From Candidatus Poribacteria bacterium (GTDB lineage: Bacteria > Poribacteria > WGA-4E > WGA-3G): DNA of 64,000 bases. The notes beneath the pieces were generated by a model. The model ran no database searches. It saw nothing but the letters and a program-made list of their open reading frames with translations, and was not told where the DNA came from. The DNA lies in contig CAXXLX010000001.1 of NCBI GenBank assembly GCA_963665235.2, positions 3,230,031 to 3,294,030 of the forward strand, in the 5' to 3' direction. Shown one piece after another: positions 19,738 to 63,436 of the stretch (within the stretch, counting starts at the first letter, position 1; every line of letters starts with the position of its first letter). The translations under genes were made by a program, and so were the position numbers.

Positions 19738-20763
19738 TTACCTCTTGAGATTCCCCCAGGTGGTTGTTAATTTTTGTTGCGGTTCGACAGGAAAAACCTC
19801 TTTTACCCCGCTCCACCATGAAATTATGAAAATACTACCGTCCGCTTCCAACAATTTTGCGGAAACTTCGGTATCTAGGTCGAAGAGGTAAAGCGTGTGC
19901 CACCAAGAATAGATAATGGATTGACTATCAGCGGCCCAGGCTGCCCAATATCCGGTCGCGTTATCTATGTCAAACAGTGCTTTGAGGGTTCGTGTTTCAA
20001 CATCAATTGTATAAAACGTCTCAAATTCTCTATCCCATCTCATGAACAGAATCTGCTTGCCGTCAGGGGACCATACTGGATAGTAATCTTTATTTAACTC
20101 GGTTAATATTTCTACGTCTTTCGTTTCTACATCTAGAATGTAGAGTTGTTCTAAACCGCCGGGTCTTTCAAGCGAAAAGACGATTTTTTTGCTGTCGGGG
20201 GACCAAGAGAGTCCCCAGAAGAAAAAGGTGCGTCCAAAATGCTGGACACCTGTCATCACCTCCATCTCCCCTGTAGCGATGTCGAGCGTCCAAACTTGGT
20301 TTTCTTGCTGGACGTGTCCTTGATACCCGTTGAAAGCAAGTTTTTTTCCATCCGGCGAGACGGATAAAAATCTATAAGTTCCACCCACCTGCGTGATTTG
20401 TGTCTTTTTTTTCGGTGTATCCAATTGAATTGAGTAGATATGGGATTGGCCGGCCTCTCTTTGAATAAAATAGAGGGTTTCACCATCTGGGCTCCACGAT
20501 GGATACATTCCCTTTTGGTGCAACGGAATCCCCCGAAAATCTTTATTGTCCCCGAACGCCGTCGTATAGAGGTTCCAATCATATCTACCTAACCTCTCGT
20601 CAAGTTTATAGACAGAATACACAAGGGTCCCTGTTGGTGCTGCTGCTGCGATATGCGCTAAGCAGAACAGGACGAGGCTAACCCCAATACCTAGAGATTT
20701 TAAGAGGGATGTGTTGCGAAAATGCCGAGTATCCGTTCTATTTTTCATCTGTTTTCCTTTCAC
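19738..20763 (-). CDS. Secreted TolB-like PD40 beta-propeller protein ending in the KLTTTWGNLKR tag
   Basis: It has a signal peptide and PD40 repeats SWSPDGETLYF, SVSPDGKKLAF, SWSPDSKKIVF and VWSPDGKQILF. The C-terminus is VEPQQKLTTTWGNLKR. The start may be the internal MKNRTD at 20748. Confidence 0.8.
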   Translation of the reverse strand: MKGKQMKNRTDTRHFRNTSLLKSLGIGVSLVLFCLAHIAAAAPTGTLVYSVYKLDERLGRYDWNLYTTAFGDNKDFRGIPLHQKGMYPSWSPDGETLYFIQREAGQSHIYSIQLDTPKKKTQITQVGGTYRFLSVSPDGKKLAFNGYQGHVQQENQVWTLDIATGEMEVMTGVQHFGRTFFFWGLSWSPDSKKIVFSLERPGGLEQLYILDVETKDVEILTELNKDYYPVWSPDGKQILFMRWDREFETFYTIDVETRTLKALFDIDNATGYWAAWAADSQSIIYSWWHTLYLFDLDTEVSAKLLEADGSIFIISWWSGVKEVFPVEPQQKLTTTWGNLKR

Positions 20764-28104: not shown

Positions 28105-28192
28105 CAAATGGTAAGAACAGTTATGGCAGCCTTAACACAAAACAACTCTTACAATTACCAATGGTTAATTTCACAGTGAGGAAACCTCTTAA

Positions 28193-29485
28193 ATGCGAAA
28201 ATTGAACATACTTACACTCTTTCTGATTTTGATAACGTCTACTGCATCCGCACAATTTTTACTTGTGCCGATGGAAAAGACACAAACAAATCATCTCAAG
28301 GCTTATGGATTGACATATTGGGCATTAGAAGTGCCGCGTGAATATCAGTGTTATTGGTGGTTGAATTATCGCGGGGGGTCATTTGTTATTCCGGATTCTC
28401 CCGATGTTCGCGCACGCGCTGCACAGATGGGGGTCTCTTTTGAACCGATGAACGATGCCGAGTACAACGCAATCAAAGAGATTATTGAAACTAGTAATAT
28501 GGATGAAATCCTGTTGGAAAAAGCCCCCAAAATCGCTGTGTACGCCCCATCAGAGACATCCGCTTATCGTGACCCGTGGGACGATGCTGTAAAAATTGCT
28601 CTGGATTACGCTGAAATTCCTTATGACCAAATCTGGGATAAGGAGGTACAACGCGGGGCACTGCACACCGAAGGCTACGATTGGTTGCACCTACACCATG
28701 AAGATTTTACGGGCCAACACGGAAAATTCCACGCCTCTTTTTCACACCAGGTCTGGTATCAACACCGGATGGCACTTTTTGAAAAAGCTGCGGCAGAAGC
28801 TGGATTTAAACGTGTCGCCCGTCACAAAGGACAAACTGCCCTCGATATCGCCGATTATGTGGCCAAAGGCGGATTTATTTTTGCTATGTGTTCCGCCCCT
28901 GAAACGCTAGACATCGCCCTCGCTACAAAGGGTGGCACCATCGATATCGTTGACCCTGTCTTGGATGCAACCCCGCTTGCAGACGGTTTCCAAAATCAAT
29001 TAAACTTCGAGCGGACATTTGCGTTTAGGAATTTCACGCTCTACCCTAATCCAAACCGCTATGAATTCTCTGATGTTGATAATCCAAATCCGGACCTAAA
29101 CTTTCAAAGCGGCGTTGAAAATTTTCAACTCTTTGAGTTTTCCGCAAAACATGACCCGATTCCAACGATGCTCACACAAAACCACGTCTCAGTAGTACGA
29201 GGTTACCTGGGGCAGACAACCTCTTTCAATATGGATAAGATTCACAATGCTGTCACGATTTTAGGAAGGATTGAGGGCACGAACTATGCCAAATATATTC
29301 ATGGCGCGCTAGGTAAGGGTACTTTTACCTTCCTCGGCGGACACGACCCCGAGGACTATCGGCACCTCGTCGGCGAAGGCAAAATCCCGACAAACCTTGA
29401 CTTGCACAAGGATTCACCGGGCTATCGTTTGATACTAAACAATATTCTATTTCCAGCGGCTCGTAAAAAACCGCAGAAAACCTGA
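28193..29485 (+). CDS. Conserved secreted hypothetical protein
   Basis: 430 aa with signal peptide MRKLNILTLFLILITSTASA. The open frame is long and clean with coding-like composition. No catalytic motif was recognised with confidence. Confidence 0.6.
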   Translation: MRKLNILTLFLILITSTASAQFLLVPMEKTQTNHLKAYGLTYWALEVPREYQCYWWLNYRGGSFVIPDSPDVRARAAQMGVSFEPMNDAEYNAIKEIIETSNMDEILLEKAPKIAVYAPSETSAYRDPWDDAVKIALDYAEIPYDQIWDKEVQRGALHTEGYDWLHLHHEDFTGQHGKFHASFSHQVWYQHRMALFEKAAAEAGFKRVARHKGQTALDIADYVAKGGFIFAMCSAPETLDIALATKGGTIDIVDPVLDATPLADGFQNQLNFERTFAFRNFTLYPNPNRYEFSDVDNPNPDLNFQSGVENFQLFEFSAKHDPIPTMLTQNHVSVVRGYLGQTTSFNMDKIHNAVTILGRIEGTNYAKYIHGALGKGTFTFLGGHDPEDYRHLVGEGKIPTNLDLHKDSPGYRLILNNILFPAARKKPQKT

Positions 29486-29499: not shown

Positions 29500-31602
29500 A
29501 TGATAGCAACAATCGCAACCTGCAATTTGAATCAATGGGCACTTGACTTTGAAGGAAATTGTCAACGGACCATTGAATCCATTGAAATAGCAAAAGCGGC
29601 GGGGGCGCGGTTTCGCCTCGGCCCCGAACTTGAAATCACGGGGTATTCCTGCGAAGATCATTTCCTCGAGGAGGATACACTGCGCCACAGCTGGGAAGCA
29701 TTGGCGCACATCTTAAAGGGAGACCATACACACGGCATCCTGTGCGACATCGGCATGCCTGTGATGCACAAAAATGTCCGCTATAACTGCCGTGTCTTCA
29801 TTTTAGATGGCAAAATTCTCCTAATCCGTCCGAAGTTGGTGCTCGCCGCGGAGGGAAATTATCGAGAACCGCGCTGGTTTACTGCATGGAATAAGGGGTG
29901 GACAACTGAAGATTTTCAGGTCCCGCCCGATATCCGAAAAATCACAGGCGATACCACCGTGCCGATTGGGTGTGCCGCAATTGCCACGTACGATACCGTT
30001 TTAGCCTCAGAAACTTGTGAAGAGCTGTTCACGCCTTTCTCGCCACACATTCAGTTAGCGCAGAACGGTGTTGAGATAATCGCCAACGGTTCCGGGTCGC
30101 ATCACGAGCTCCGAAAACTTGACACCCGGCTGTCACTTATTCGAAACGCAACTGCCAAAAGCGGCGGGATTTACCTCTACGCTAACCAGCAGGGATGTGA
30201 TGGCAGCAGACTCTATTTCGACGGTTGTGCCGCAATTGCACAAAACGGGGGTATCCTTGCACTCGGCACACAATTTTCTCTCAACGAGGTTGAAGTGGTC
30301 ACCGCCACCGTTAACCTCGCGGATGTCCGTTCCTATCGAGGGTCCAGAATGAGCAGTGCCGTTCAGGCGAGTCGGAGTACCGCTATTCCGCAAATCCGCA
30401 TCGATTTCGATATCGCGCATCCGGAAGCGCGGCCTGTCACTATGCCGAAAGTTAAGCTCAAAATTCACATCCCGGAAGAGGAAATCGCCCTCGGGCCAGC
30501 CTGCTGGTTATGGGATTATCTGAGACGTTCCGGTGCAGCCGGGTTTTTCGTTCCACTTTCAGGCGGGTCGGATAGCGGAGCTGTTGCCACCCTTGTCGGC
30601 TCAATGTGTCAGCTCGTCGCCAAAGCGATTCTTGACGATGTGCCTCACGTCATTCGAGACAGTGAACACCTACTCGGGACAGAGTGTGTCGAAAAGATAA
30701 AAACCGATTTTAACGAACCGCAGCGAGCAGCGCAATATCTTGCAAATCAATTGCTATATACCTGCTATATGGGAACAGCGAACAGTTCACGGGAGACGCG
30801 AAAGCGCGCCAAAAAGCTAGCACAGGAGATAGGCAGTTATCACCTCAATGTCAACATAGAAACCCTCGTTCGTGCCTTGCGGAAACTGTTCACAAAGGTA
30901 ACCGGAAAAACCCCGCAATTCAAAACCGAAGGCGGCACCCACATTGAAAACCAGGCACTCCAAAACATACAGGCACGGCTCCGTATGGTCACAAGTTATC
31001 TCCTTGCCCAAACGTTACCGTGGATTCGCAAGCGGCGTGGCACCTTACTCATCTTAGGCACCGGCAATGTTGATGAAGCCTTGCGCGGCTATCTTACCAA
31101 ATACGATTGCAGCAGTGCTGACATCAATCCAATCGGTAGTATTAGCAAAACCGATTTGCGTAGTTTTCTCCGTTGGGCAGAAGAACACCTCGGTTATACC
31201 AGCCTCGCCCAAATCTTGGCGGCACCGCCTACCGCAGAATTGGAACCGATTACCGAAACTTATACACAAACCGATGAGGAAGACATGGGCATGACTTATG
31301 CGGAACTCAGCCGATTCGGACAACTCCGAAAAATTCACCGCTGCGGCCCGGTCAGTATGTTTGAGAAACTGCTACAGGAATGGCATCACCTACCTCCTGA
31401 AGAGGTGGCAGAAAAGGTTAAGCGGTTTTTCCGATACTACGCTATCAATCGCCACAAGATGACAACGTTAACACCGGCATATCACGCCGAATCCTACTCG
31501 CCGGATGACAATAGGTTTGACCTGCGCCAGTTTTTATACAACACACGTTGGACATGGCAATTCCGACAAATTGACGCAATGCTGAAGGAGTTGGAAAAGT
31601 GA
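29500..31602 (+). CDS. nadE: Glutamine-dependent NAD+ synthetase, long form (N-terminal CN-hydrolase domain)
   Basis: 700 aa. The nitrilase-like N-domain has PELEITGY and a Cys in ASETCEELF. The synthetase domain has PLSGGSDSGA (SGGxDS). Confidence 0.9.
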   Translation: MIATIATCNLNQWALDFEGNCQRTIESIEIAKAAGARFRLGPELEITGYSCEDHFLEEDTLRHSWEALAHILKGDHTHGILCDIGMPVMHKNVRYNCRVFILDGKILLIRPKLVLAAEGNYREPRWFTAWNKGWTTEDFQVPPDIRKITGDTTVPIGCAAIATYDTVLASETCEELFTPFSPHIQLAQNGVEIIANGSGSHHELRKLDTRLSLIRNATAKSGGIYLYANQQGCDGSRLYFDGCAAIAQNGGILALGTQFSLNEVEVVTATVNLADVRSYRGSRMSSAVQASRSTAIPQIRIDFDIAHPEARPVTMPKVKLKIHIPEEEIALGPACWLWDYLRRSGAAGFFVPLSGGSDSGAVATLVGSMCQLVAKAILDDVPHVIRDSEHLLGTECVEKIKTDFNEPQRAAQYLANQLLYTCYMGTANSSRETRKRAKKLAQEIGSYHLNVNIETLVRALRKLFTKVTGKTPQFKTEGGTHIENQALQNIQARLRMVTSYLLAQTLPWIRKRRGTLLILGTGNVDEALRGYLTKYDCSSADINPIGSISKTDLRSFLRWAEEHLGYTSLAQILAAPPTAELEPITETYTQTDEEDMGMTYAELSRFGQLRKIHRCGPVSMFEKLLQEWHHLPPEEVAEKVKRFFRYYAINRHKMTTLTPAYHAESYSPDDNRFDLRQFLYNTRWTWQFRQIDAMLKELEK

Positions 31603-33239
31603 AGCCGCTGCACCTAAAATCGAGTGTCAAATTTTTTCTCCTGCCCTGTTTCATATCCCTGCTGTTTTTTTTCATCCCGTGCTTACTTCACGGTGCCCCG
31701 GGGGTCCCGCTGAACTTCGATGGATGGGTCATCGAGACGCTCGCGAAACTAGAGGTTGCTGGTATCACGGGCGGTTTTCATCGACACACGTTACCGCTAT
31801 CCCGCCACGATGTAGCAAAAATTATCCACCGTGCTGAAGCGCGTATCCGCACAGAGATTGTCATTGCATCCCCAATGGATAAAAAACTTCTCCAGAAGCT
31901 CAAACGTGAATTTCAATTTGAATTATCACAAATCACCCCTCAAAACGAACTACAAACTTCGAAGCAGAAGGTTCGCCTAGAAATTCAGCCTCAACTTCGG
32001 GGCGCGAATGACGATATTGCACCAGCTCTTGAAACCGGATTTCATTACACTATCGGCACCGAAAAAAATCGACTGATTGTATATACCGAATTAGAATTCT
32101 CTAATTTTGAACAGGGGACAGATTTTGTCGAGAGCTTTTTTTTACCGAAGCCGCCGCCACTGCTGAAGTCGGCTGACCAACGATTTGAAAGATGGCGTGG
32201 CGATTATGTCGTGGACTTTAAAAGAAGTTATCTACAATACCGTTTCATGCCTTTCGGAGATGCTGAATTGGACATCTTAGTCGGAAGGGATTTTATATTC
32301 TGGGGAGCGAGTCCTAATAAATCTGTCGGAATCTCCGACAACTCACCCCCGTTTGAGCTTATTCGCCTCACCGGCACTTTTCCATTCAAATTTGGTACGC
32401 TCAAAGCTACCGCGGTCTCCGCACAACTTAACGCGACGTGGCATGACGATGGTACAACCCGATACCTTGCGAAACGTTACCTCAGCGCGCATCGGCTCGA
32501 CTATCAATTTAGCGATTGGCTCGAAATTAGTGCAGCCGAATCGGTACTCTACGGCGGGGATGTGCAATCCGTACAATGGAACTATCTCAATCCTGTTATC
32601 CCCTATTATGCTGTGCAATACAATGCCAAGAATGACGATAATATCATGTTCAGTTTCGGTGGGTCGATTCGTCCGCTGGATGGGGTCCGGCTCTACGCAG
32701 AGTGGGGCGCGGACGATTTTCAGTACAATCCGAAAACGCTCGACCCGCACGCTGTTACGTGGTTGACCGGCATAGAATGGTATCCGATGCAAACCGACCG
32801 TCAACTCGGAATACAGACAGAGTACGTTCGCGTCAATCGATGGGCATATACGCACCTCGTGCCTGATAATCAGTTCACCCACTTCGGTACTATGATTGGA
32901 CACCCGATTGGCACCGATGCGGATATAGTGACGTTACGTGTTTCATATCAGGCTACCCCCTCAGCTGTCCTTGAGACCCGTTTTAGTCATCAGCGAAATG
33001 GGGAGGCAGATGTTACCGACCGTTTCTACGGTGAGGACTATCAAAATATTCCATTTCCTTCAGGAACAGTTGAAAGGCTTTCTGAGATGCGATTTGGTTG
33101 GAAATATCGCCCGAACTCGGCTTTGAAAAGTTCCATCAATTATGCCTGGCGTTACGTCCAAAATACAGCACATAGTGAAGGTGAAACCGACTATCAGCAC
33201 CGTTTCGTTTTTTTAGTTGCTTACGCATGGCGGAATTAG
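31599..33239 (+). CDS. Outer-membrane protein, capsule assembly Wzi-like
   Basis: 546 aa. It has a GTG start overlapping the nadE stop, a signal peptide, an N-terminal helical LETLAKLEVAGITGGFHRHTLPLSRHDVAKII, and a beta-barrel-like alternating C-terminus ending in an aromatic-rich strand. Confidence 0.5.
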   Translation: MKPLHLKSSVKFFLLPCFISLLFFFIPCLLHGAPGVPLNFDGWVIETLAKLEVAGITGGFHRHTLPLSRHDVAKIIHRAEARIRTEIVIASPMDKKLLQKLKREFQFELSQITPQNELQTSKQKVRLEIQPQLRGANDDIAPALETGFHYTIGTEKNRLIVYTELEFSNFEQGTDFVESFFLPKPPPLLKSADQRFERWRGDYVVDFKRSYLQYRFMPFGDAELDILVGRDFIFWGASPNKSVGISDNSPPFELIRLTGTFPFKFGTLKATAVSAQLNATWHDDGTTRYLAKRYLSAHRLDYQFSDWLEISAAESVLYGGDVQSVQWNYLNPVIPYYAVQYNAKNDDNIMFSFGGSIRPLDGVRLYAEWGADDFQYNPKTLDPHAVTWLTGIEWYPMQTDRQLGIQTEYVRVNRWAYTHLVPDNQFTHFGTMIGHPIGTDADIVTLRVSYQATPSAVLETRFSHQRNGEADVTDRFYGEDYQNIPFPSGTVERLSEMRFGWKYRPNSALKSSINYAWRYVQNTAHSEGETDYQHRFVFLVAYAWRN

Positions 33240-40959: not shown

Positions 40960-42504
40960 ATGAAAATCCTTATTATGATTCTTCTCGGCTCTGCGTTCTT
41001 CTTCGCGCAAACGTTTGCGTACTCTGAGATTAAACTGCCACGCGTTATCAGCAACGACATGGTGCTGCAACGCGATATGCCCGCACCGATTTGGGGATGG
41101 GCAGATGCAGGCGAAGATATTTCTGTTACCCTCAGCAAACAGGACGTAGAAACTGGCACTGTTCATACAACAACTACAACCGCTGACGCGAACGGCAATT
41201 GGCAAACGACACTCCCAGCTATGCAGGCAGGCGGCCCGTATACGCTTAACATCAGCGGCAGCAGCACCGTTGAACTTACAAATATACTTTTTGGCGAAGT
41301 GTGGTTATGCTCAGGACAGTCTAATATGGAGTGGCCCGTCAACGCTTCAATGAACAAAGACGCTGAAATAGCCGCTGCAAATTACCCGCTGATTCGATTA
41401 TTTCACGTACCGCGGGAAGCCTCCGGGTTGCCTGTCCGTGACGTACATACACAGTGGCGGCCGACTACACCGGATAACATCAGACATTTTTCCGCTGTCG
41501 CCTACGCTTTTGGTAGGCATATTCACAAGGAACTAGATGAGGTGCCGATTGGGTTAATTAACGCCTCATGGGGGGGCACCCGTATTGAACCGTGGACCCC
41601 GCAGGTCGGATTCACATCGGTATCAGCACTCACCGCAATCGCTGAAGAAATTCAGGATGTTGACAAAAACTATCGAGCGCAGCTCCCACAGAAGCTGAAC
41701 GATATTGAGGAGTGGATAGCAAAGACAAGAAAGGCATTGGAAAACGAAGGTGTTATTTTTCAGATGCCCGAAAATGTACACCCCTTAACCCCCCATCAGA
41801 GACCGACAGCACTTTACAACAATATGGTCTATCCAATTGTGCCTTTTGCCATACGTGGTGCCCTTTGGTATCAAGGCGAATCAAACATGGGGGAAGGTAT
41901 GATGTACCATGAAAAGATGAAGGCACTTATTAACGGATGGCGACAGGTCTGGGGACAAGGGGATTTTCCGTTCTATTTTGTCCAACTCGCGCCATGGGGC
42001 GGCTACGATAAAAATGATCCGACTCGACTTCCAAGGTTTTGGGAGGCGCAAACTGCCACGCTAGCCGTACCAAATACCGGTATGGTGGTAATAACAGACG
42101 TGGGCAACATTCGGGATATTCACCCGCGAAATAAACAGGATGTTGGATTGCGGCTTGCCTTATGGGCACTTGCCAAAACTTACGGTAAAGAGGAGCTGGT
42201 GCATTCCGGACCGCTTTACAAATCTATGGCCGCTGAAGGCAACACAATCCGTATCAGTTTTGACCATGTGGGCAGTGGGTTGATAGCGCGAGATGGCGAA
42301 CCGTTGACATGGTTTCAAATTGCAGGAGAGGATAAGGAGTTCGTTGAGGCAACTGCGGTCGTTGATGGCGATACGGTGGTTGTATCAAGCGATTCGGTTC
42401 AGGCACCTGTTGCCGTGCGATTCGGTTGGGATCAGATTGCGGAGCCGAACCTTATGAATAAGGAGGGACTACCCACCTCACCTTTCCGGACCGATTCATG
42501 GTAA
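40960..42504 (+). CDS. Sialate O-acetylesterase family (SGNH/SASA domain) secreted protein
   Basis: 514 aa with a signal peptide and GEVWLCSGQSNMEWPV (GQSNM). Confidence 0.8.
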   Translation: MKILIMILLGSAFFFAQTFAYSEIKLPRVISNDMVLQRDMPAPIWGWADAGEDISVTLSKQDVETGTVHTTTTTADANGNWQTTLPAMQAGGPYTLNISGSSTVELTNILFGEVWLCSGQSNMEWPVNASMNKDAEIAAANYPLIRLFHVPREASGLPVRDVHTQWRPTTPDNIRHFSAVAYAFGRHIHKELDEVPIGLINASWGGTRIEPWTPQVGFTSVSALTAIAEEIQDVDKNYRAQLPQKLNDIEEWIAKTRKALENEGVIFQMPENVHPLTPHQRPTALYNNMVYPIVPFAIRGALWYQGESNMGEGMMYHEKMKALINGWRQVWGQGDFPFYFVQLAPWGGYDKNDPTRLPRFWEAQTATLAVPNTGMVVITDVGNIRDIHPRNKQDVGLRLALWALAKTYGKEELVHSGPLYKSMAAEGNTIRISFDHVGSGLIARDGEPLTWFQIAGEDKEFVEATAVVDGDTVVVSSDSVQAPVAVRFGWDQIAEPNLMNKEGLPTSPFRTDSW

Positions 42505-44553: not shown

Positions 44554-45393
44554 TTATCTCCGCCGTGCTTTAATGTGGCCCCACGTGACGCTCAGCTGGT
44601 TTGCAGAAGGACTGACATCAAGCCCCGTAGCGGTCATATTTTTTCGGACTTCCGCCGCCGTGAGTGCGCGTTCATAAATACGGAATTCGTCGACATATCC
44701 CTGAATCGCATCGCAATTGCAGCCATCTGAGCGGTCTCCGATGGCTAACTTGAGCCCGCCTTTAGGGATTTTGCCCCCTGGCACTGCGTATTTTTTCTCC
44801 TGTTTACCATTCACATAGTAGTGAACTGTCGTGCCATCGTAGGTGCCAACGAGATGAATCCACTGTTCAAGCGGGATATCCTCCAGCACATTATGCTGTG
44901 CTGCCTTGGTTTCCTGCCCACCTGCTCTTATGAAAAAGCCGTGCTGATTGTCATCATCGTCGTAATAGAGGCTGGCAACTGCTTTGTTTGTGGGCATATC
45001 GTCAAGCGAGATAATCCGATTCCAACTATCATCTAAGGCAGTAATATAGACCCAACACTCCAACGTGATTTCATCCCAATCTCGGTTAATTTTCGGGGGG
45101 TCTGAATCCTCCACGAGGAGATAGTCGACAGTCCCATCAAACAAGATACACTCTCCGACTTTACAATCGGCAGTGGGTGCAAGCTCAGGGTCACCTTTGA
45201 CTACGGCAGTCAGCCCGGAGAAGATATCCTCTGCCTGTTTTTGGATTTGTACCGTATCCTTGTCAAATGACCAATATGCGACTAAACCGTCCTCAACTGC
45301 GCCGACAATTGCATCGGCGGGCTGTGTTGTTAGGGCAATTAGGAGCGCGAAAAGCGTCCAAATCGCGTAGGTTAATGGTGTGCTCTTGTGCAT
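44554..45393 (-). CDS. Secreted LamG (concanavalin-like) domain protein with a C-terminal QLSVTWGHIKARRR tag
   Basis: The start is taken at MHKSTPL after an AAAGGAGG RBS. It has a signal peptide ending PADA. The LamG_3-like core has LVAYWSFD and IDEFRIYERALTAAEV. Confidence 0.8.
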   Translation of the reverse strand: MHKSTPLTYAIWTLFALLIALTTQPADAIVGAVEDGLVAYWSFDKDTVQIQKQAEDIFSGLTAVVKGDPELAPTADCKVGECILFDGTVDYLLVEDSDPPKINRDWDEITLECWVYITALDDSWNRIISLDDMPTNKAVASLYYDDDDNQHGFFIRAGGQETKAAQHNVLEDIPLEQWIHLVGTYDGTTVHYYVNGKQEKKYAVPGGKIPKGGLKLAIGDRSDGCNCDAIQGYVDEFRIYERALTAAEVRKNMTATGLDVSPSANQLSVTWGHIKARRR

Positions 45394-45469
45394 AATGCCT
45401 CCTTTAATTGCTTGATAGCATATAGGTTTCAACGGTTTTCAGCGGAGCGGATTATCGGCTTAGGCTATT

Positions 45470-48061: not shown

Positions 48062-49150
48062 TTACCACTCTATATCCTCTATGGATTGTGCCTCTAATGC
48101 TTGTGTGAATATGGCATCGAGGCGTTTGAGGCTGCGCATCCTCCCGATTTTACGGGTAAGTTCATCAGGAACATCGTCAAAACGTGTGTGTATGGTTTTC
48201 AGGGTATCCTCACGTTTCGCACGAACCACACCGATTTCTATACCGCGTTTTTCACCGGCTTCCATACCTTCTTCAAAAAGAGATTGGGCTATCGTTTGCA
48301 CCTTCGATTCCTCCTTCGCTCTAAGCGATTTATCTTCTATCAAATCGTGAATCGTATGAACTAAACCTTCACGCTCTTCACGCTCCCTACGACCGTATAT
48401 CAACATATAAATATACGACAAAACTTTGTCACGCTGACCTACTTCATCAGGACCAAGCGATAGCAGGCGCTCCACTACAGAAACTATTGCCGAACGCAAC
48501 GCCGCCTCACTTCCATGTTCTTGTTGTAATACCGTCAACGCCCACCCAAACAGATGATCTGGCTGAGTTAATGTCGCCGCCTCGGTGTGCTTCACATCTA
48601 AAAGCAGAAAACGACACTCCGGAACATATACCCTGAAAGGATTAAACGGATTTGCCAACTCACGCAACGACAACGGAACTGACCATTTCCGGTCTCCTGT
48701 GTAAAATACTATACCAATCACTGCCGGCAAACCCCACTCATCCTGAGGGTGCTCCTGCAATCCATAATCCTGTAGATGCACAGACCATACCTGCATCATA
48801 TACGCGTGTAGACGATACGCCATTTTCCGATCAACCGTCGATTGATGTTCTACCAGCACATAAACAGGCAACGTCTCACGTTCTGAAGCTGATACGCTAT
48901 CCTTCTGAATTGGGATACTATACAGCAAATCCGACACATGTTTTCGCAGATTCTCCGGGATGAAAGTTGTATCCTGCCGAACAGCATTCTTAAAATCGAG
49001 ATGCGGCACAACGGCACTGTCAAGGATTTCAAGTAACCCTCTCACATTCTGCGAATTGTCAACAAACCAAAGCGAGCTCAGCTCCGGAAATTGCCGTAAG
49101 GCTGAATAATCAAGCGCATTGAACATACTGATTATTTTATTTTTATTCAT
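48062..49150 (-). CDS. Rpn/YhgA-like recombination-promoting nuclease (PD-(D/E)xK putative transposase)
   Basis: 362 aa. DLLYSIPI...LPVYVLVEHQSTVDRKMAYRLHAYMMQVW matches the family core. Confidence 0.7.
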   Translation of the reverse strand: MNKNKIISMFNALDYSALRQFPELSSLWFVDNSQNVRGLLEILDSAVVPHLDFKNAVRQDTTFIPENLRKHVSDLLYSIPIQKDSVSASERETLPVYVLVEHQSTVDRKMAYRLHAYMMQVWSVHLQDYGLQEHPQDEWGLPAVIGIVFYTGDRKWSVPLSLRELANPFNPFRVYVPECRFLLLDVKHTEAATLTQPDHLFGWALTVLQQEHGSEAALRSAIVSVVERLLSLGPDEVGQRDKVLSYIYMLIYGRREREEREGLVHTIHDLIEDKSLRAKEESKVQTIAQSLFEEGMEAGEKRGIEIGVVRAKREDTLKTIHTRFDDVPDELTRKIGRMRSLKRLDAIFTQALEAQSIEDIEW

Positions 49151-52037: not shown

Positions 52038-52835
52038 ATGAATTTAATGCGAATTGGTATAGTGATCCTTGTCGCTGTCTGTTGGCTGAGCTCCCCCACT
52101 CACGCCGCTATAGATGGCAAGAATATCAGGGGGATGTGGCTCTTTGACGGGGCAGGTGACACCGCAAAAGATTCCACAAAAAACGGCAACGACGGTAAAA
52201 TCCACGGCGGAACCAAACGGGTCGATGGAAAGTTCGGAAAGGCACTTGAATTTGATGGCACAGACGGTTGGGTCGAAGTGCCACATTCGGATAGTGTCGC
52301 GTTCAAAAAAGGCACCTCTTTCACGATTACGCTCCATTTTAAAGGCACTAAAATTGGTGGTTCGCTCGTTGGCAAAAACTATGAAGATCAATCACAAGCT
52401 TTACCTTGGTACCTGCTTTGGAACGGCGGTAACAATAACATTCTATCCCTCTACCTACGCAATTCTCAAAGTCAGAACTTTAGAATTGATGGCACGTCCG
52501 ATATAGGTGATGACAAATGGCATTTTATCGCCGCCAGAGCGGATGCCGCTGCGCAAAAAATCTCTTTGTGGATAGATGGGAAACAGGAAGCCGAAGGTAA
52601 TTTTGATACCAACGATGGATACGGCACAAGTGACGGTGTGTTTCATATCGCACGACACTTTGACCGATATACCGCCGGTATCATCGACGACGTGGCACTC
52701 TTCAATATCGCCTTGAGTGAAGCCGACATGAAGACCATCATGGATAACGGCGTTGAAGAAGCTGCCGCAGTGGAACCTGTAGACAAATTAACAACCACGT
52801 GGGGCAAACTCAAACGCCACACACAAGCACAATAA
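52038..52835 (+). CDS. Secreted LamG domain protein with a KLTTTWGKLKR C-terminal tag
   Basis: 265 aa with a signal peptide. The core has MWLFDGAGDTAKDSTKNGNDGKIHGG...GKFGKALEFDG and IIDDVALFNIALSEADM. The C-terminus is AVEPVDKLTTTWGKLKRHTQAQ. Confidence 0.85.
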   Translation: MNLMRIGIVILVAVCWLSSPTHAAIDGKNIRGMWLFDGAGDTAKDSTKNGNDGKIHGGTKRVDGKFGKALEFDGTDGWVEVPHSDSVAFKKGTSFTITLHFKGTKIGGSLVGKNYEDQSQALPWYLLWNGGNNNILSLYLRNSQSQNFRIDGTSDIGDDKWHFIAARADAAAQKISLWIDGKQEAEGNFDTNDGYGTSDGVFHIARHFDRYTAGIIDDVALFNIALSEADMKTIMDNGVEEAAAVEPVDKLTTTWGKLKRHTQAQ

Positions 52836-52850
52836 GGAGAAATTTAATTT

Positions 52851-53657
52851 ATGTATCTAGCTAAAAATATGGGTGTCGCTTTAGCGATGCTGCTCGGGCT
52901 CTGTTTGCTAATACCCGCTCCTAGCTCAGCAAGCTTTGACTTCGATAACATCATGGGGATGTGGCTCTTTGACGAAGGGGAAGGGACGGTCGCAAGCGAT
53001 TCTTCAGAAAACGGAAATGATGGCACTATCCACGGCGCGACCTGGGTAAATGGCAAATTCGGAAAAGCACTCCAATTCGATGGAGCCGCGAACTGGGTTG
53101 AAGTCCCACACTCTGACACTGTCGGGTTTGAAGCCGGAACTTCGTTCACGCTCACACTGCATTTCAAAGGCACCAAGGTCGGCGGCTCACTCGCTGGCAA
53201 AAACTATGAGGATAAATCGCAAGTTTTACCGTGGTATATGCTCTGGAACGGCGGTGGCGATAACAAGGTAACCTTCTTCTTACGGAATACTGCCTCAGTC
53301 AGCTATAGACCCCAGAGCGCAACCGAAATCGGGGATGACGAATGGCACTTCGTCGCTGGCAGAGCGGACGCTGAAACAGGTAAGGTAACCTTGTGGATAG
53401 ATGGGAAACAGGAAGCCGAACTCGATTTTGACACAAACAGCGGATACGGCAACAGCGAAGGCGTATTTCACATCGGACGACACTTCGACCGATATACCGC
53501 TGGCATCATCGACGAAGTCCTCCTTTTCAATGTCGCCCTCGATGAAGCGGATATGAACGCAATTATGGAAGACGGTATCCAAACAGTTGCTGCTGTTGAA
53601 GCCTCTGGCAAACTTACAACAACCTGGGGCACACTGAAGCAACGGGTAACACGATAA
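52851..53657 (+). CDS. Secreted LamG domain protein, tandem paralog, with a KLTTTWGTLKQ C-terminal tag
   Basis: 268 aa and collinear with the preceding gene. The C-terminus is AVEASGKLTTTWGTLKQRVTR. Confidence 0.85.
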   Translation: MYLAKNMGVALAMLLGLCLLIPAPSSASFDFDNIMGMWLFDEGEGTVASDSSENGNDGTIHGATWVNGKFGKALQFDGAANWVEVPHSDTVGFEAGTSFTLTLHFKGTKVGGSLAGKNYEDKSQVLPWYMLWNGGGDNKVTFFLRNTASVSYRPQSATEIGDDEWHFVAGRADAETGKVTLWIDGKQEAELDFDTNSGYGNSEGVFHIGRHFDRYTAGIIDEVLLFNVALDEADMNAIMEDGIQTVAAVEASGKLTTTWGTLKQRVTR

Positions 53658-53751: not shown

Positions 53752-54855
53752 GTGAAGCAATTACAGACACTCTTCATATTAGCATTATTGCTACTGGCGG
53801 GCTTGAACTGTGGAACAACAGACAATCCTGTCAATCAACCCGAAGACATTGAAACGCCAACCGGCAGCCTCCAAGGCGAAGTGGCACCAATTGAGGGCAT
53901 CCCAGTCCAGGTACGTCTAATAAAAGCGGGACAACTCATCGCGCAAACTGAAATAGATAGCAGCTACGAATTTAGCGGCATTGAAGAGGGCAATTATACA
54001 ATCCAGCTCACCGCCAAAGGGTATGAAACAGTTGAAATAGACGTGACAGTCGTCGCGGAACAGACTGTACCCGTCGATAAAGTGACACTTGTGGCGTTGA
54101 CAGCCCCCGTATCACATCTACGAGGCGTTCTAACCGACGCGGAAACAGAAGCACTCCTCTCCGAAGTTAGAATTCAACTTACGGATGAAGCCGGTGAAAA
54201 ACAGGAAACGCTCACAACGAAAGATGGGGTATTCACCTTTGAGAATCTCCCGATTAATCAGACGTTTACCTTGACTGTTAAACACACCGGTTATGAAGAT
54301 AACGAAGTCAACGTAAAACCGATTCCTGCCGATGAAACCTTTGAACTGGATATAGAACTTACGCCGGTCCCCGAGCAGGAGGAGTTGGGCCCAGGGGAAG
54401 GGTTAAGTATTGGCAGTGATGCCCCAGGATTTAAACTGCCCGATGCCAATAATAAGCAGCACGCGCTTGCGGACTACATCGGCAAAAAAAATGTTGTCCT
54501 TGTGTTCTTTCGCGGCCGTTTCTGACCGTTTTGCCGAACGCAACTCGGTGAGTTGCAAGAAAATTACGGTAAAATTCAAGCCGAAGGTGCCGAACTTATC
54601 GCCATCAGCTCCGATGACGTAGCTGAGACAAAACGGACAGTTCAAAACCAAGGTATTCAATACATCATCCTTGCTGATAGCGACAAACAGGCTATTACTG
54701 CTTACAACGTCGTCGATCCGCAAAACAATCGGCTAGCACGTCCAGCAAGTTATATCCTAAAAGCAGATGGCACTATCGCTTGGAAATTTCTTGATGTCCG
54801 AGTAGATAATCGGGTGCCGACTGCACAAATTTTGAACGAATTAGGAAAACTCTGA
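53752..54855 (+). CDS. Candidate selenoprotein: lipoprotein with two CarboxypepD_reg-like domains and a peroxiredoxin/thioredoxin-fold domain carrying U-P-F-C (in-frame TGA at 54523-54525)
   Basis: ORFs 53752-54525 and 54553-54855 are in the same frame and are separated by a single TGA, with no other stop. The read-through product reads VVLVFFRGRF-U-PFCRTQLGELQENYGKIQAEGAELIAISSDD. That is the canonical VVLVFFRGxWCPxCxxQL...GAxLxAIS redoxin motif, with the TGA at the first Cys. A hairpin lies downstream of the TGA. Confidence 0.7.
54528..54575 (+). promoter_or_regulatory. Putative bacterial SECIS element
   Basis: The upper stem is GCAACT (54540-54545) paired with AGTTGC (54551-54556), with apical loop CGGTG. 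Its first G is 22 nt after the TGA. A lower stem, 54528-54536 paired with 54567-54575, has 9 pairs including 2 G-U. Confidence 0.5.
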
Positions 54856-56251: not shown

Positions 56252-58240
56252 TCAATCCTCTATATTCTCTCTTGCCTTAGAGATAATTTTGTGCCAATCC
56301 CAGAGAAGCACTGTCCCATCCCAACTTCCGCTGGCGAGCGTTTGACCGTCGTGTGAAAACACTAACGTCTCTACCGGTTCTGTATGTCCAGACACGGTTG
56401 CCAGAACTTTACCTGTTTCTACATCCCGTAACTGAATTGGATTGTCCCCATCACCCATTCCGGAACAGATGAGCGTTTTACCATCGGGTGAGAACGTCAA
56501 TGCTCCGCCAAATATGCTCATATCTCCGGGGATTACGGTAAGTTTGGTATTCGTTTCATCAAATTTCCACAAATAGATACCATCCCTACCTCTCAGGACA
56601 AGCAAAGAGCTGTCGGGTGAGAAAGCCAAAGCGGTCCCCTCCATAGGGGCTACTTTCGGAGGCGTGTCCGGTGTTTCCACATTCCATACCTGTAGTGGGC
56701 CGTGAGATAGTCCTACTGCAAGCCATTTTCCGTTAGGTGAGAACATCGGTTTGTTTCCAAACGTTGGTCCTTTCACTTCAAAGTGGAACAATTCAACGCC
56801 GGTGTAAACGTGAAATCCTCTAATCTCTTGAAAACCGCTCAACGCAATTATAGTGTGGTTCGGGGCGAATACGGCTGCGTCTACAGTGGAATCCCCCTGT
56901 TTTTTCCACTGTTTAGAGATCTCTTCACCGGTTGCTATCCGCCATAATCGCAGATGGCTGCCCCCGCTGGTACGGCTCTGGAATCCGAAGCTATCTGGAG
57001 AAAATGCTATTAAACCGCTTTTGCCCTGCGTTGCAAAAAGGGTCGCATCCAATGAAAGCACTGCTACATCTGTCACGTCGCTCTGCCCCGCAGTGAAGGT
57101 CTTCTGTCTCTGCCCGGTCTCCAGGCTCCATACGTCCACAATCCCGTTAAACGCTGCAGTTACAAGTGTTGCATCGTTTTCAGAAAACGCAACCGCTTTC
57201 ACCAATTCCGTATGTCCGGTAGCAAGGGTTGTGAGCTCTGTGCCGTTCTGTGGATTCCATAGGCGGATTGTTCCATCCGCGCTACTACTGGCAAGACACC
57301 TGCCGTAAAGTGGCGTTTCCGTAGCTGCGAAGGTTAGAGCACTAATGGTATTTTTATGACCGGTGAGGATTACTTGTTCTTTTTGTGTCTCTACATCCCA
57401 AAGTTTAATGACCTTCCCCGTGTCACCACTCGCAACGGTTTTTCCATCCGGTGAGAATGCAATAGCGGTAATCCAGCCTTCAGGTGTACTGAGCGTCCCA
57501 AGCTTGGCGTGTTTCTGTGTATCCCACAATATCACCTTTTTATTCTCACCGCCACTCGCGAGAATTTTTCCATCCGGTGAGAATGCCAATGCCAGGATTC
57601 CCGAGTCTGTGTCATTTCCATGTCCCTCAAAAATCGCCTGATCGCTGCTCGTCGTTGTGTTCCATAGATGAATTTTCCCATCTCGGTTCGCAATAGCAAG
57701 TTTACTACCATCTTGTGAGAAGGCAACCCTCTCGTATAGATAAGGTATATTTGCCATCGATAATTTGCGCCCGGTATCTACATGCCAATAACTGATTTCA
57801 CGAAGCCCATTTATGCTGATAAGCGTTCTACCGTAAAATGTCAATGCCTCCGACGAAGAGTCTTCGTACGTTAGTGTGATTGATGAAAGTTTGCTTTTAG
57901 TTTTCACATCCCAAATTTGAATAATGGAGGTATTAAATCCACTGCTTGCCAGCATTTTTCCATCCGATGAAAAAGCAAGCGCGTTGACATGTCCAATACG
58001 TTCTGTAAATAGGGCAGTCTCTTTCCCATCCGCCACATCATAGAGCCACAAGCCAACATCTGTCCCGACAGCGAGCTGCGTGCCATCCGGTGAAAAGCGA
58101 ATGATATTAATCCCACCTTTGCCGAGCCGTACGATTGCGCCTTCTGGTAAACCTGCTTCCCTGTTGTCTTGTGCAAAACTGTTTGAGAACGTTATGGCTA
58201 TCAACAACAAAATGATTAGGAATCTATATTTTGATGTCAT
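56252..58240 (-). CDS. Secreted WD40-repeat protein (about 14 repeats)
   Basis: 662 aa with a signal peptide and many SPDG..LASG...I.LWD repeat units. Confidence 0.85.
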   Translation of the reverse strand: MTSKYRFLIILLLIAITFSNSFAQDNREAGLPEGAIVRLGKGGINIIRFSPDGTQLAVGTDVGLWLYDVADGKETALFTERIGHVNALAFSSDGKMLASSGFNTSIIQIWDVKTKSKLSSITLTYEDSSSEALTFYGRTLISINGLREISYWHVDTGRKLSMANIPYLYERVAFSQDGSKLAIANRDGKIHLWNTTTSSDQAIFEGHGNDTDSGILALAFSPDGKILASGGENKKVILWDTQKHAKLGTLSTPEGWITAIAFSPDGKTVASGDTGKVIKLWDVETQKEQVILTGHKNTISALTFAATETPLYGRCLASSSADGTIRLWNPQNGTELTTLATGHTELVKAVAFSENDATLVTAAFNGIVDVWSLETGQRQKTFTAGQSDVTDVAVLSLDATLFATQGKSGLIAFSPDSFGFQSRTSGGSHLRLWRIATGEEISKQWKKQGDSTVDAAVFAPNHTIIALSGFQEIRGFHVYTGVELFHFEVKGPTFGNKPMFSPNGKWLAVGLSHGPLQVWNVETPDTPPKVAPMEGTALAFSPDSSLLVLRGRDGIYLWKFDETNTKLTVIPGDMSIFGGALTFSPDGKTLICSGMGDGDNPIQLRDVETGKVLATVSGHTEPVETLVFSHDGQTLASGSWDGTVLLWDWHKIISKARENIED

Positions 58241-60324: not shown

Positions 60325-61560
60325 ATGGCGCATTTTCATTTCAGACAATCTTCAATTGCAATCGTCCTTGTGCTCATAGCACTTACCTTCGTGATGTGTC
60401 AAGAAAGCCCCGCGGATAAAATAGTGTCAAGTCTTCACGGACAGGTTATAGATGTGGAAGGTAAACCGGTTGCAGGTCTCAAACTCGCTATGAAACCTGT
60501 TAAATTTGTAGGGTTTAATGCTGGTTTAGTGCCACGTACACCTTTCTCTTCGTGGGCAAGGGTAGTGACAGATAAGGAGGGGAAATTCTATTTCCATAAT
60601 ATAGGTCGTGTTTCATCACAATTCGTAATGTTCCCGGAACACGGCTCGGATTATGAAATCGTATCAATGGCATTTGGAGATTTAACCTTCTATTCCACTG
60701 CCTACATTCGAAATTTACCATCCTATTTTGGAAAACTCACCTTTACTGTTGGACCGCGCAATCATCTTAAAAATGTGATAGTCAAGGTGAGACCGCCTCG
60801 GATGCGAATTCGGGGACGAATTCTCTTGAAGGATGGCACTCCACTTGCGAATGCAGAAATTGGTCTTACCGTCCGGCATCGCCAGCGGAAGACCCAATTT
60901 CTCTTCTTCTCCGATATCCGTGGTGGTGGCGCGTCAGGAATGGTTAGTACGACCGATGCCGAAGGCTATTTCGTATCATATTATCCACAGGAAGCTGGAG
61001 AATACTCAGTAGCCGTGAAATATGAGGGCGCGTCCGCAAAGTCAAAATGGTTTCGTATTAAAGAGGGACAGCGGTACGATAAGCTCGTTTTGAGACTTAA
61101 AGACTTGGAAAAACATCGTGCTGAACGCAATAAAAGGTTGAAAGCGCGACAAGCGATGTGGACAGTAAATCCTGACAATCACCACGCTTACAAGAAAATT
61201 GTGTGTGACAGCTGGGAAGATGCAAAAGCGAAAGCGGAAGCCGAAGATGCCTATATAGTCGCCATTAATGACGAAGCGGAGCAGCAATGGTTGGCCGCAG
61301 TTTATCCGAAGAAAACGTTCTCTTGGATTGGGCTCCGTGTTCCCAAAAAAGAGGCAGCCTGGCTGTGGGACAGCGGCGAGCCTTTCACCTATGCAAATTG
61401 GATAGCCCCCAAGGCACCCGAGCTTGCGCCTACTATCAATAACGAAGTGCCAGTCGCTATGGAACCCTTTTCAAAGAAATGGATAGCAATTGAGCCTGGA
61501 AGCCCATTCTTATCTGCGATTAAGTACGCAATTCTCGAAAAAGAGGATATGCCTAATTAG
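60325..61560 (+). CDS. Secreted protein with CarboxypepD_reg-like domains and a C-terminal C-type lectin-like domain
   Basis: 411 aa with a signal peptide. It has LHGQVIDVEGKPVAGLKL and IRGRILLKDGTPLANAEI. The CTLD reads HHAYKKIVCDSWEDAKAKAEAEDAYIVAINDEAEQQWL...WIGL...AAWLWDSGEPFTYANW. Confidence 0.75.
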   Translation: MAHFHFRQSSIAIVLVLIALTFVMCQESPADKIVSSLHGQVIDVEGKPVAGLKLAMKPVKFVGFNAGLVPRTPFSSWARVVTDKEGKFYFHNIGRVSSQFVMFPEHGSDYEIVSMAFGDLTFYSTAYIRNLPSYFGKLTFTVGPRNHLKNVIVKVRPPRMRIRGRILLKDGTPLANAEIGLTVRHRQRKTQFLFFSDIRGGGASGMVSTTDAEGYFVSYYPQEAGEYSVAVKYEGASAKSKWFRIKEGQRYDKLVLRLKDLEKHRAERNKRLKARQAMWTVNPDNHHAYKKIVCDSWEDAKAKAEAEDAYIVAINDEAEQQWLAAVYPKKTFSWIGLRVPKKEAAWLWDSGEPFTYANWIAPKAPELAPTINNEVPVAMEPFSKKWIAIEPGSPFLSAIKYAILEKEDMPN

Positions 61561-61951: not shown

Positions 61952-63436
61952 ATGACCCGTCTTCCTTTCACCAAACAGATTTTTGTATGGTTAACAATAG
62001 GTATTGTGTGGGGACTCGCTGCAGCGGATTGGGAAGCTGCCGCCGAGCAATCGTCAACGTTATCCGGACGCGTTATCAATGCCGAAGGTAAACCACTTGT
62101 CGAAACCCCCATCGTCCTGCTATACGTCAAAATTGCCGAAAATGGCACAGTAGACACCCTATTTGACAGGGTGCTGTATCCTTTTCTCCGCCAGATGCCG
62201 GCCGCCGATACGCCATCCCATCTTAACAGGAGAAGGCAAGCACTTAATCAGAAGCTGCCGCATCCCCCCTTTTTGGAAACCGAAACCGATTCAGCCGGAC
62301 AATTCACCTTCACCGACATCGTTACGGGCCCTGTACAATTAATGGTCCTGCCGATGGAAAATGAGCAGTCACCGCCTCCCGCGGACCCGCACTTCATTAA
62401 GCCGCTACCCGAAATTCAGACCATTACGTTCGGAAAAATGAAATTTCACCCGACTTTATCCATTTTTTTCCCACTGCTCGACACAGTCACCTTTGCTATT
62501 AAGCCGGGCGTAAACCTCCAAAACGTAGAAGTCAAAATGGCAGTCCCCAGAGAAATTCGGGGCAGAATTGTTTTCAAAAATGGTGAACCGCTCGCCGACA
62601 CAACCTTTAAGATTAACCTCAGTCTGCTTGACGTTGACCCCGACATGCTGCTAGGTATGGGCCAGATAGATGAATTCGGCATCTGGTACCCATTAAATAC
62701 GGATGCCGATGGAAATTTCGTCCTTCCTTTCCATGCATCTATGAATTGTGTACTATCCGTTAACCATCGTGGACTTTCCACAGCACTAAAACCGTTTATC
62801 ATCGAAGAGGGAAAAATCCCCGAAACTGTTGTTCTAATGCTCAACGGCAATCCCGAAGACCTTGCCGAACTGCCACCTGAAATTCCCGAAGAGCATCAAT
62901 ACCTCCTACCGAACGTCCCAGGTACCTGGATAGTGAACCCCGCAAATGGACACGCCTACAAATGGATTGCCTGTAAGAATCGTGAGGATGCACAAGTCAA
63001 GGCGGAGGCCGAAGGCGCGCATCTGCTTACAATTAATAGTGAAACTGAACAGATATGGATTGAAGCTGTCTTTGAATACGGCCCCTATTGGATTGGATTG
63101 ACCGACATGCTAAAAGAGGGGGAATGGCTGTGGGAAACTGGAGAGCCTGTCACATACACCAATTGGAAAAAGCCCGATGTAATTGAAGAGAATTCCGATG
63201 AACCCCCGGCTCTTCTCAAGTTCTTCGGGGTCAAAAGTGAGGAGCAACGCCAGAAGGATGAAGAGGCGGACTACGCCATTATACCCGCACGCTGGTGGGG
63301 CGCAATCGGGCAATGGGTAGCAGTTGACGAAGAAGGCAGATTTCACGGAGAAATCCTGATGGCAATTATTGAGCGGGATGGAATGCGCTCAAAACTACTC
63401 AACTTGCCACCTGACATGAAACCAAACAGAAAGTGA
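61952..63436 (+). CDS. Secreted protein with CarboxypepD_reg-like domains and a C-terminal C-type lectin-like domain; paralog of 60325-61560
   Basis: 494 aa with LSGRVINAEGKPLVETPI and IRGRIVFKNGEPLADTTF. The CTLD reads GHAYKWIACKNREDAQVKAEAEGAHLLTINSETEQIWI...WIGLTDMLKEGEWLWETGEPVTYTNW. Confidence 0.75.
   Translation: MTRLPFTKQIFVWLTIGIVWGLAAADWEAAAEQSSTLSGRVINAEGKPLVETPIVLLYVKIAENGTVDTLFDRVLYPFLRQMPAADTPSHLNRRRQALNQKLPHPPFLETETDSAGQFTFTDIVTGPVQLMVLPMENEQSPPPADPHFIKPLPEIQTITFGKMKFHPTLSIFFPLLDTVTFAIKPGVNLQNVEVKMAVPREIRGRIVFKNGEPLADTTFKINLSLLDVDPDMLLGMGQIDEFGIWYPLNTDADGNFVLPFHASMNCVLSVNHRGLSTALKPFIIEEGKIPETVVLMLNGNPEDLAELPPEIPEEHQYLLPNVPGTWIVNPANGHAYKWIACKNREDAQVKAEAEGAHLLTINSETEQIWIEAVFEYGPYWIGLTDMLKEGEWLWETGEPVTYTNWKKPDVIEENSDEPPALLKFFGVKSEEQRQKDEEADYAIIPARWWGAIGQWVAVDEEGRFHGEILMAIIERDGMRSKLLNLPPDMKPNRK

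Follow-up and report, generated by a model that had tools for sequence, protein, structure and literature searches.

Four genes in a 64,000-nucleotide stretch of Candidatus Poribacteria DNA (GenBank assembly GCA_963665235.2, contig CAXXLX010000001.1, positions 3,230,031 to 3,294,030; here, the window) encode exported proteins that end in much the same short peptide, which has the general form (L)AVEPxxKL(T/A)TTWGx(L/I)K. What does a peptide of this kind do at the C-termini of proteins with different folds? The original prediction, made from the window alone, took it for a possible sorting or anchoring signal read by a dedicated pathway. Here, we show that the peptide is a strictly C-terminal, modular tag on exported proteins, that it is under selection at the protein level, and that it is unlike every curated sorting signal. 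It is a real and robust class of C-terminal tag in Candidatus Poribacteria that had apparently not been described before. Regarding its function, we put at about even the chance that the tag is a phylum-wide modular address or docking peptide, which serves the sorting or anchoring of Sec-exported binding modules in this phylum.

Four tagged proteins in one window

The four carriers of the tag and their tails lie at the following positions in the window:

52038-52835 (+): carrier 1, exported LamG protein of 265 amino acids (aa); signal peptide at about residues 1-23 (nucleotides 52038-52106), LamG domain at residues 73-230
52767-52832 (+): C-terminal tag of carrier 1, AVEPVDKLTTTWGKLKRHTQAQ
52851-53657 (+): carrier 2, exported LamG protein of 268 aa, tandem paralogue of carrier 1; signal peptide at about residues 1-27
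53592-53654 (+): C-terminal tag of carrier 2, AVEASGKLTTTWGTLKQRVTR
44554-45432 (-): open reading frame (ORF) of carrier 3, divergent exported LamG protein; gene likely 44554-45393, with the likely start at the ATG at 45393 (MHKSTPL...)
44557-44619 (-): variant C-terminal tag of carrier 3, DVSPSANQLSVTWGHIKARRR
19738-20763 (-): ORF of carrier 4 (P0004), exported PD40 (TolB-like) beta-propeller with Pfam PD40 repeats; 19738-20748 from the ATG at 20748, 336 aa
19741-19791 (-): C-terminal tag of carrier 4, PVEPQQKLTTTWGNLKR

Each of the four C-terminal sequences is as the original prediction had given it, with the shared motif 1 to 6 residues before the stop codon, and Pfam confirmed that one carrier is a PD40 protein and three are LamG proteins (Laminin_G_3, PF13385; E 7.7e-16 for carrier 1 and E 2.5e-28 for carrier 3). 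In NCBIfam, the PD40 protein has weak TolB-propeller matches, and one LamG protein matches TafC below the cut-off. The Pfam match to the tandem LamG pair stops at residues 230-234 (total length 265-268 aa), which leaves about 30 residues up to the C-terminus; the tails of the four carriers match no Pfam or NCBIfam family. As read from the sequence, the N-termini of all four are plausible to typical Sec signal peptides with AxA-type cleavage sites. The variant tail of carrier 3 recurs in near-identical form on P0270, one of the matches to the tail profile described below.

Within the window, the tag is both rare and selective. A six-frame search of the long ORFs for WG.[LIVM]K found these four carriers only, 1 to 6 residues before the stop. 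The DNA core pattern ACNTGGGGNNNNNTNAAR occurs four times, compared to 0.09 +/- 0.29 occurrences expected from dinucleotide shuffles, and none of 100 shuffles reached four. At least seven other proteins of the window have signal peptides and no tag (25222-28104, 28193-29485, 40960-42504, 53752-54525, 56252-58240, 60325-61560, and 61952-63436); therefore, the tag marks a subset of the exported proteins, as is expected of a sorting class. Four of the untagged proteins lie near the tagged LamG pair: a CarboxypepD_reg protein with a lipobox (53752-54525, +), two proteins that combine CarboxypepD_reg with a C-type lectin domain (60325-61560 and 61952-63436, both +), and a 662-aa WD40 protein (56252-58240, -). 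Because exported repeat and lectin proteins this close to the pair lack the tag, we regard it as selective.

We found 386 homologues of carrier 1, and each one that bears an organism name is from Candidatus Poribacteria; the sources name them only "LamG domain-containing protein" or "hypothetical protein." Three RNA runs yielded metatranscriptome contigs that span both tandem LamG genes, including the 3' ends that encode the tag, and stop in the flanks; thus, related copies of these genes are expressed in situ.

Anatomy, carriers, and distribution of the tag

The tag follows the consensus [LF]-A-V-[ED]-[PA]-x-x-K-L-[TA]-T-T-W-[GA]-x-[LIV]-K, after which come 1 to 10 (mode 3) polar or basic residues. 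About 18 to 22 aa long, the conserved block is fused to the C-terminus of the carrier with almost no linker. We aligned 159 tails, in which W, G, and the final K are fixed by the regular expression used for selection; each of V, the first K, L, and the T-T that precedes W is found in >90% of these tails, and directly after L, approximately 80% have T and most of the others have A. In some paralogs, the G is replaced by A or S. The residues after the final K vary in both sequence and length and are rich in R, S, Q, N, and T. The maximal Kyte-Doolittle hydropathy over 16 aa in the last 30 residues of the 159 tagged proteins averages 0.23 and never exceeds 1.35, which bears out the prediction that no hydrophobic helix follows the motif.

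Every degenerate codon position of the tag varies, and all synonymous codons are used. Because synonymous codons vary freely, the conservation of the tag lies at the level of the protein and not in a DNA element; on the same ground, we rejected a DNA repeat or a mobile 3' cassette as its source. In one set of LamG orthologues (62 to 90% identity), three tail residues are invariant and six are nearly so, as in the core of the domain.

A divergent tail, ...V(D/N)xRxxxxxx(L/V)MWGWLKQLxxGxRxx, occurs on tandem Kelch-propeller paralogs encoded between positions 366 and 7999 of locus L052 (uncultured bacterium SRP200020_co5_420), which adjoin genes with the canonical tag. These tails suggest lineage- or family-specific variants of the signal.

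We scanned one genome per species from 185,579 species with the pattern AARYTNACNACNACNTGGGGNNNNNTNAAR, which encodes K-L-T-T-T-W-G-x-[LIVMF]-K. At least 120 loci matched, compared to approximately 4 to 8 chance matches expected from the information content of the pattern. Of the 120 loci listed (identified here by L numbers), 110 carry the label Candidatus Poribacteria, seven come from unlabelled "uncultured bacterium" metagenome-assembled genomes, and one comes from a bin labelled Pseudomonadota, whose source study also gave Poribacteria bins among the listed loci. The remaining two (Synechococcus and Clostridia) have the motif in very short ORFs, and we set them aside as chance matches. The tag is restricted to one phylum, Candidatus Poribacteria.

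In the listed loci, the strict motif stands 1 to 8 residues from the stop in 136 of 137 instances (mode 3). Relaxing the core to W[GAS]x[LIVM]K gives 177 terminal and 10 internal instances in ORFs no shorter than 150 aa, and the rest of the motif is absent from the internal ones. A search with HMMER of 1.84 billion cluster representatives with the tail profile A3 gave 436 clusters at 50% identity (E <=0.001), nearly all of which match at the C-terminus; among the matches listed, 133 of the 141 that contain the core end no more than 6 aa from the C-terminus. Matches that depart from this are spurious translations of repeats or gene calls with apparent read-through. The spurious translations are P0153 and P0160, the top two profile matches, whose six to nine internal "repeats" are not the tag but come from translated repetitive DNA (QQKLTTTLQNLG, lacking W-G). 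A second profile, built from a 45-aa tail alignment and searched against a set of 5.8 billion proteins, returned 60 candidates, all of them short gene fragments, and is unfit as a census.

The carriers are exported. A signal-peptide-like N-terminus was called in 126 of 131 complete carriers and in 233 of 734 control ORFs of the same loci (Fisher odds ratio 54, p 6e-48), where the call is a permissive heuristic, not SignalP, and is positive for 32 to 41% of controls. Only five carriers have a lipobox-like motif. Together with the terminal position of the motif, these counts show enrichment at C-termini and on signal-peptide proteins.

Once the signal peptide and tag are removed, BLAST sorts the 131 carriers into at least 19 clusters with no relation to one another at an E of 1e-5, so the modularity first suggested by four proteins extends far beyond them. 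The largest cluster is LamG, with 79 carriers. Other folds recognised by Pfam are PD40 and Kelch propellers, F5/8 type C (discoidin), CBM9, 3-keto-disaccharide hydrolase (DUF1080), an ankyrin carrier with an additional weak, sub-threshold match to a reprolysin-like metallopeptidase, and giants of up to about 1,900 aa with He_PIG and lamin-tail domains (LTD); several carrier families have no Pfam match. Nearly all carriers are binding or repeat modules rather than enzymes. The He_PIG Ig-repeat/LTD giants (L059:2593-7635, -; L101:2251-7998, -; L010:4279-7182, +; and in L021, L032, and L067) have a conserved domain of about 100 aa directly before the tag (LPVxLxxFRPxRD...WxTESELNNAGFNILRS...YYYQIEDVSLDG...), which has no NCBIfam match.

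One explanation for these data is that the tag has no function of its own, being either the last structural strand of a carrier domain or a segment that recombination has spread among paralogs. The concentration of 79 of the 131 carriers in a single LamG cluster would fit. Against it, the same tail is found on propellers, ankyrin, CBM9, discoidin, and Ig/LTD giants (at least 18 non-LamG clusters), its peptide is invariant while the synonymous sites are scrambled, and the Pfam LamG match of the tandem proteins ends well short of it. AlphaFold2 also leaves the tail unpacked on both folds. For carrier 1, the mean pLDDT was 86, with residues 246-265 below 50 (approximately 41) and not packed on the LamG domain; for the PD40 carrier 4, with a shallow alignment, it was 67, with the propeller at 70 to 90 and the tail (residues 303-336) below 50 (approximately 30). 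These predicted structures show that the tail does not belong to the fold of the carrier, whether LamG or PD40. We consider a nonfunctional or structural explanation essentially excluded and its probability negligible. None of the outcomes that would have counted against the original prediction held: the tag reaches beyond paralogs, is neither internal nor on cytoplasmic proteins, and is not the last strand of one domain.

Comparison with known C-terminal signals

Eight isolated tails had no match at E up to 10 in NCBIfam (release 20.0, June 2026) or Pfam, and the whole carriers of the window, searched against the NCBIfam sorting models at E up to 1, matched neither TIGR04183 nor any other sorting model. 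Searched against PDB sequences, the tail profile met with chance matches only (E >=0.33). In the literature, we found no description of the motif or of a Poribacteria sorting signal; the sole relevant item is the remark by Kamke et al. 2014 (PMC3909097) that TIGR04183 matches occur in single-cell genomes of Poribacteria without recognisable structural genes for a type IX secretion system (T9SS).

The same library did detect a positive control. The Poribacteria propeller protein L111:701-2386 (+), on contig CATQHZ020000001.1, matches TIGR04183 with 30.9 bits (cut-off 23) and also has weak matches to models of the PorU and PorZ C-terminal regions; it is encoded two genes from a LamG-tag gene. 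This genuine TIGR04183 domain agrees with the remark of Kamke et al. 2014. Given that the domain is present in the same genomes and its model does not match the tag, the short tag is a second, distinct C-terminal class. Thus, the distinction that the original prediction drew from PEP-CTERM, LPXTG, GlyGly-CTERM, and T9SS signals holds up against curated models.

The T9SS type A domain (TIGR04183/PF18962; Bacteroidota, FCB group) is nevertheless like the tag in several ways: both are C-terminal signals on unrelated Sec-exported proteins, both mark a subset of the secretome, neither has a transmembrane helix, and they co-occur in Poribacteria genomes. The tag might be a minimal, second signal to a T9SS-like pathway, with the T9SS machinery itself or a derivative of it (PorV/PorU-like) as its reader, and might be cleaved and joined to a glycolipid in the process. 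The TIGR04183 match and the weak PorU/PorZ matches of the L111 protein, so close to a LamG-tag gene, speak for this, as does the fact that TIGR04183 matches without recognisable T9SS structural genes leave a pathway unassigned (PMC3909097). The two signals differ, however, in that the T9SS domain is a folded Ig-like sandwich of 70 to 100 aa, whereas the tag has about 20 aa, is predicted to be unstructured alone, and forms no domain in AlphaFold2. There is no sequence or profile similarity between them: neither tagged proteins nor isolated tails match TIGR04183 or another sorting model. Furthermore, the extreme C-terminus of the tag is variable and not of the K-x-x-x-K type, and T9SS genes were not found in Poribacteria (PMC3909097). 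We consider a T9SS-like route distinctly unlikely.

The signals of LPXTG/sortase, PEP-CTERM/exosortase, GlyGly-CTERM/rhombosortase, PGF-CTERM/archaeosortase, and MYXO-CTERM resemble the tag in being short, modular, lineage-restricted motifs near the C-terminus that are followed by basic residues, and the V-E-P of the tag superficially recalls the P-E-P of PEP-CTERM. In these tripartite signals, motif and basic cluster must be separated by a transmembrane helix that is hydrophobic and about 20 aa long, whereas the tag has none. We saw no PEP-CTERM-like tails, with a C-terminal transmembrane helix and basic residues after a shared motif, in the listed loci.

The beta-signal of outer-membrane proteins, which is recognised by BamA/BamD, is likewise a short amphipathic C-terminal segment with an aromatic residue and Gly that could pair with a beta-strand of a partner. 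It is the last strand of a barrel, with its aromatic residue at the extreme end; the tag sits on soluble domains and is followed by 1 to 10 variable polar or basic residues, and the tagged carriers do not show a terminal aromatic residue on a beta-barrel.

Encapsulin cargo-loading peptides and microcompartment encapsulation peptides are also short (10 to 20 aa), modular terminal peptides on unrelated proteins. Encapsulin cargo peptides, moreover, have G-x-L-K/R-like ends. Their cargos are cytoplasmic, whereas 126 of 131 tag carriers have signal peptides by the heuristic call and their domains are typically extracytoplasmic, and we rejected this kind of targeting for the tag on that account. 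Microcompartments have been reported in Poribacteria (PMC3909097).

Proposed function and gene neighbourhoods

If the tag is an address or docking peptide, then the free tail would, after export, be bound in trans by one conserved component of the envelope, which could be a receptor, a translocon, or a transpeptidase. We infer a single component because approximately 10 residues are near-invariant across unrelated carriers and across the phylum. This component would fix where tagged proteins end up; since the carriers are lectin-like or eukaryote-like binding modules, it seems most plausible that they are kept or displayed at the outer membrane or the cell surface. Binding could proceed by augmentation of a beta-strand or hairpin (LAVEP, a turn, and KLTTTW) or, alternatively, through a short amphipathic turn with L, W, and L at i, i+4, and i+7.

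Several observations weigh against a sorting or anchoring role. Of the dedicated sorting, anchoring, or secretion pathway in the original prediction, the descriptive basis stands, but the pathway itself is still something we infer: no partner or sorting enzyme was identified among the neighbours of carriers in the window or in the 120 listed loci. The neighbour families that do recur are ones that are generally expanded in Poribacteria, and the signal-peptide call is permissive, as noted above. The tag also lacks the spacer or linker that is usual in wall- or surface-anchored proteins. Finally, two profile matches, P0184 (445 aa) and P0275 (341 aa, N-terminally truncated), read by eye as a sigma-70/ECF-type (extracytoplasmic function) region, a signal-peptide-like transmembrane segment, a DUF1080-type part, and the tag. 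Such proteins would be unusual sigma factors joined to a periplasmic module, unless each is a pair of neighbouring genes called as a single one. As fusions, they would leave the tag on a protein anchored in the inner membrane, which would fit periplasmic docking better than secretion across the outer membrane and suggests that the tag can work at the inner membrane's periplasmic face.

In the window, the neighbours of the carriers are housekeeping, sugar-metabolism, sulfatase, WD40, and lectin genes. When we clustered all ORFs of the 120 listed loci, the recurrent neighbours were PhyH, GFO/IDH/MocA, FG-GAP/ASPIC, WD40, PBP1, FGE-sulfatase, TPR, and DUF6785/DUF6784 families. The TPR proteins, which are exported, lipoproteins, or anchored by a transmembrane segment, stand directly beside carriers in several distinct gene contexts:

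20738-21901 (-): TPR gene of the window, YfgM/YbgF-like, overlapping the start of the PD40-tag gene
L039:5788-7113: TPR neighbour of a carrier
L040:4396-5706: TPR neighbour of a carrier
L050:4672-6018: TPR neighbour of a carrier
L078:1257-2633: TPR neighbour of a carrier
L070:4401-5201: TPR neighbour of a carrier
L111:2923-4380: TPR neighbour of a carrier
L116:4515-5885: TPR neighbour of a carrier

DUF6785 and DUF6784 proteins are polytopic membrane proteins (at least nine predicted transmembrane segments, approximately 640 to 670 aa) encoded no more than 8 kb from carriers in seven listed loci; our literature search found nothing relevant on the DUF6785 family:

L026:2623-4548 and L026:6552-8000: DUF6785/6784 genes, in a locus where the family lies immediately downstream of a carrier
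L104:1413-3329: DUF6785/6784 gene, immediately downstream of a carrier
L068:4043-6061: DUF6785/6784 gene
L090:2-1867: DUF6785/6784 gene
L098:560-2503: DUF6785/6784 gene
L063:3002-4936: DUF6785/6784 gene
L115:7001-7999: DUF6785/6784 gene

These neighbours bring up the idea that the tag is a miniature dockerin, which would plug binding modules onto a periplasmic or outer-membrane scaffold, such as an exported TPR protein or a transporter of the DUF6785/DUF6784 kind, without any transport step. Dockerin-cohesin pairs and PTS1-PEX5 (a TPR receptor) offer a functional analogy only, in that one C-terminal module or peptide on many unrelated proteins is bound by a single receptor; dockerins are calcium-binding modules of about 60 to 70 aa, PTS1 is a cytosolic tripeptide at a free C-terminus, and neither is related to the tag in sequence. 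A scaffold of this kind is favoured by the distinct contexts of TPR genes beside carriers (the window gene and the L039, L050, L070, and L111 types), by the DUF6785/6784 genes in seven loci (directly downstream in two), by the predominance of binding modules over enzymes among the carriers, and by the sigma-transmembrane-DUF1080-tag fusions, which imply that the tag acts in the periplasm. On the other hand, the enrichment of TPR genes next to carriers over nonadjacent ORFs is only approximately 2-fold, is inflated by synteny and family expansion, and is not significant, and TPR proteins are massively expanded in Poribacteria. The tag is nearly invariant, but the TPR proteins next to carriers do not form a single orthologous group. 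For DUF6785/6784, the enrichment is approximately 3-fold, a rough estimate that assumes a copy number, and is not significant. We therefore see docking on such a scaffold as rather unlikely, if worth keeping in mind.

The fusions also bear on a role in signalling or turnover, in which the tag would be read in the periplasm by a PDZ protease, by an anti-sigma system (compare YxF-COOH in DegS/RseA), or by a tail-specific protease. Genes for an ECF sigma factor and a zf-HC2 anti-sigma factor are present in the CBM9-tag loci L019, L037, and L110, which would fit as well; two genes next to LamG carriers, suspected to be a sigma/anti-sigma pair, encode FMN reductase and RNase HII instead. PDZ domains and tail-specific proteases recognise a conserved extreme C-terminus of 3 to 5 residues, whereas in the tag a conserved K is followed by 1 to 10 nonconserved residues and the conserved block is internal to them. 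A degradation tag common to hundreds of binding modules would also be hard to explain, and we judge this role very unlikely.

Conserved short motifs can mark modification sites, and the T-T-T, W, and flanking K of the tag are invariant. The tag might accordingly be a site of post-translational modification, such as O-glycosylation of the T-T-T run or a cross-link of the Lys-Trp type, and not a localisation signal. A modifying enzyme was not found in the window or in the neighbourhoods of the listed loci, and glycosylation has no need of a strict C-terminal position on exported proteins. This possibility strikes us as slighter still.

Returning to the tag as an address or docking peptide, a more specific version is a hitherto undescribed sorting or surface-display system of Poribacteria, in which this nonhydrophobic signal of about 20 residues would be read by a putative envelope receptor, translocon, or transpeptidase; the symbiont would use the system to present binding proteins of lectin-like and eukaryote-like kinds to its sponge host. 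We hold this version tentatively, at somewhat below an even chance. Lineage-specific C-terminal tags on exported proteins have repeatedly led to envelope machineries, namely, sortases, exosortases, rhombosortase, and T9SS. The present tag defines a large and easily recognised class in an uncultivated phylum that dominates many sponge microbiomes, and the modules that carry it (lectin-like, propeller, ankyrin, and Ig-type) are of the kinds usually proposed for contact between symbiont and host. The tag offers a concrete way to look for the machinery, to predict which surface proteins Poribacteria display, and to improve annotation. If it is a true sorting signal, a tag with neither a transmembrane helix nor a folded domain would widen the known range of such signals in diderm bacteria.

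The window also contains genes away from the tagged ones. A Wzi-like outer-membrane capsule-assembly protein is encoded at 31599-33239 (+), and upstream of it, at 25222-29485 (+), are genes for two exported proteins of no clear family; the 960-aa one has carboxypeptidase-regulatory-like and TolB-like propeller segments, and the other, of 430 aa, matched nothing. Two mobile-element genes are present on the minus strand, a TnpB/IS605 OrfB-type gene at 11394-12596 (OrfB_IS605 and a Cas12f1-like TNB domain) and a YhgA-like gene at 48062-49150 (Transposase_31).

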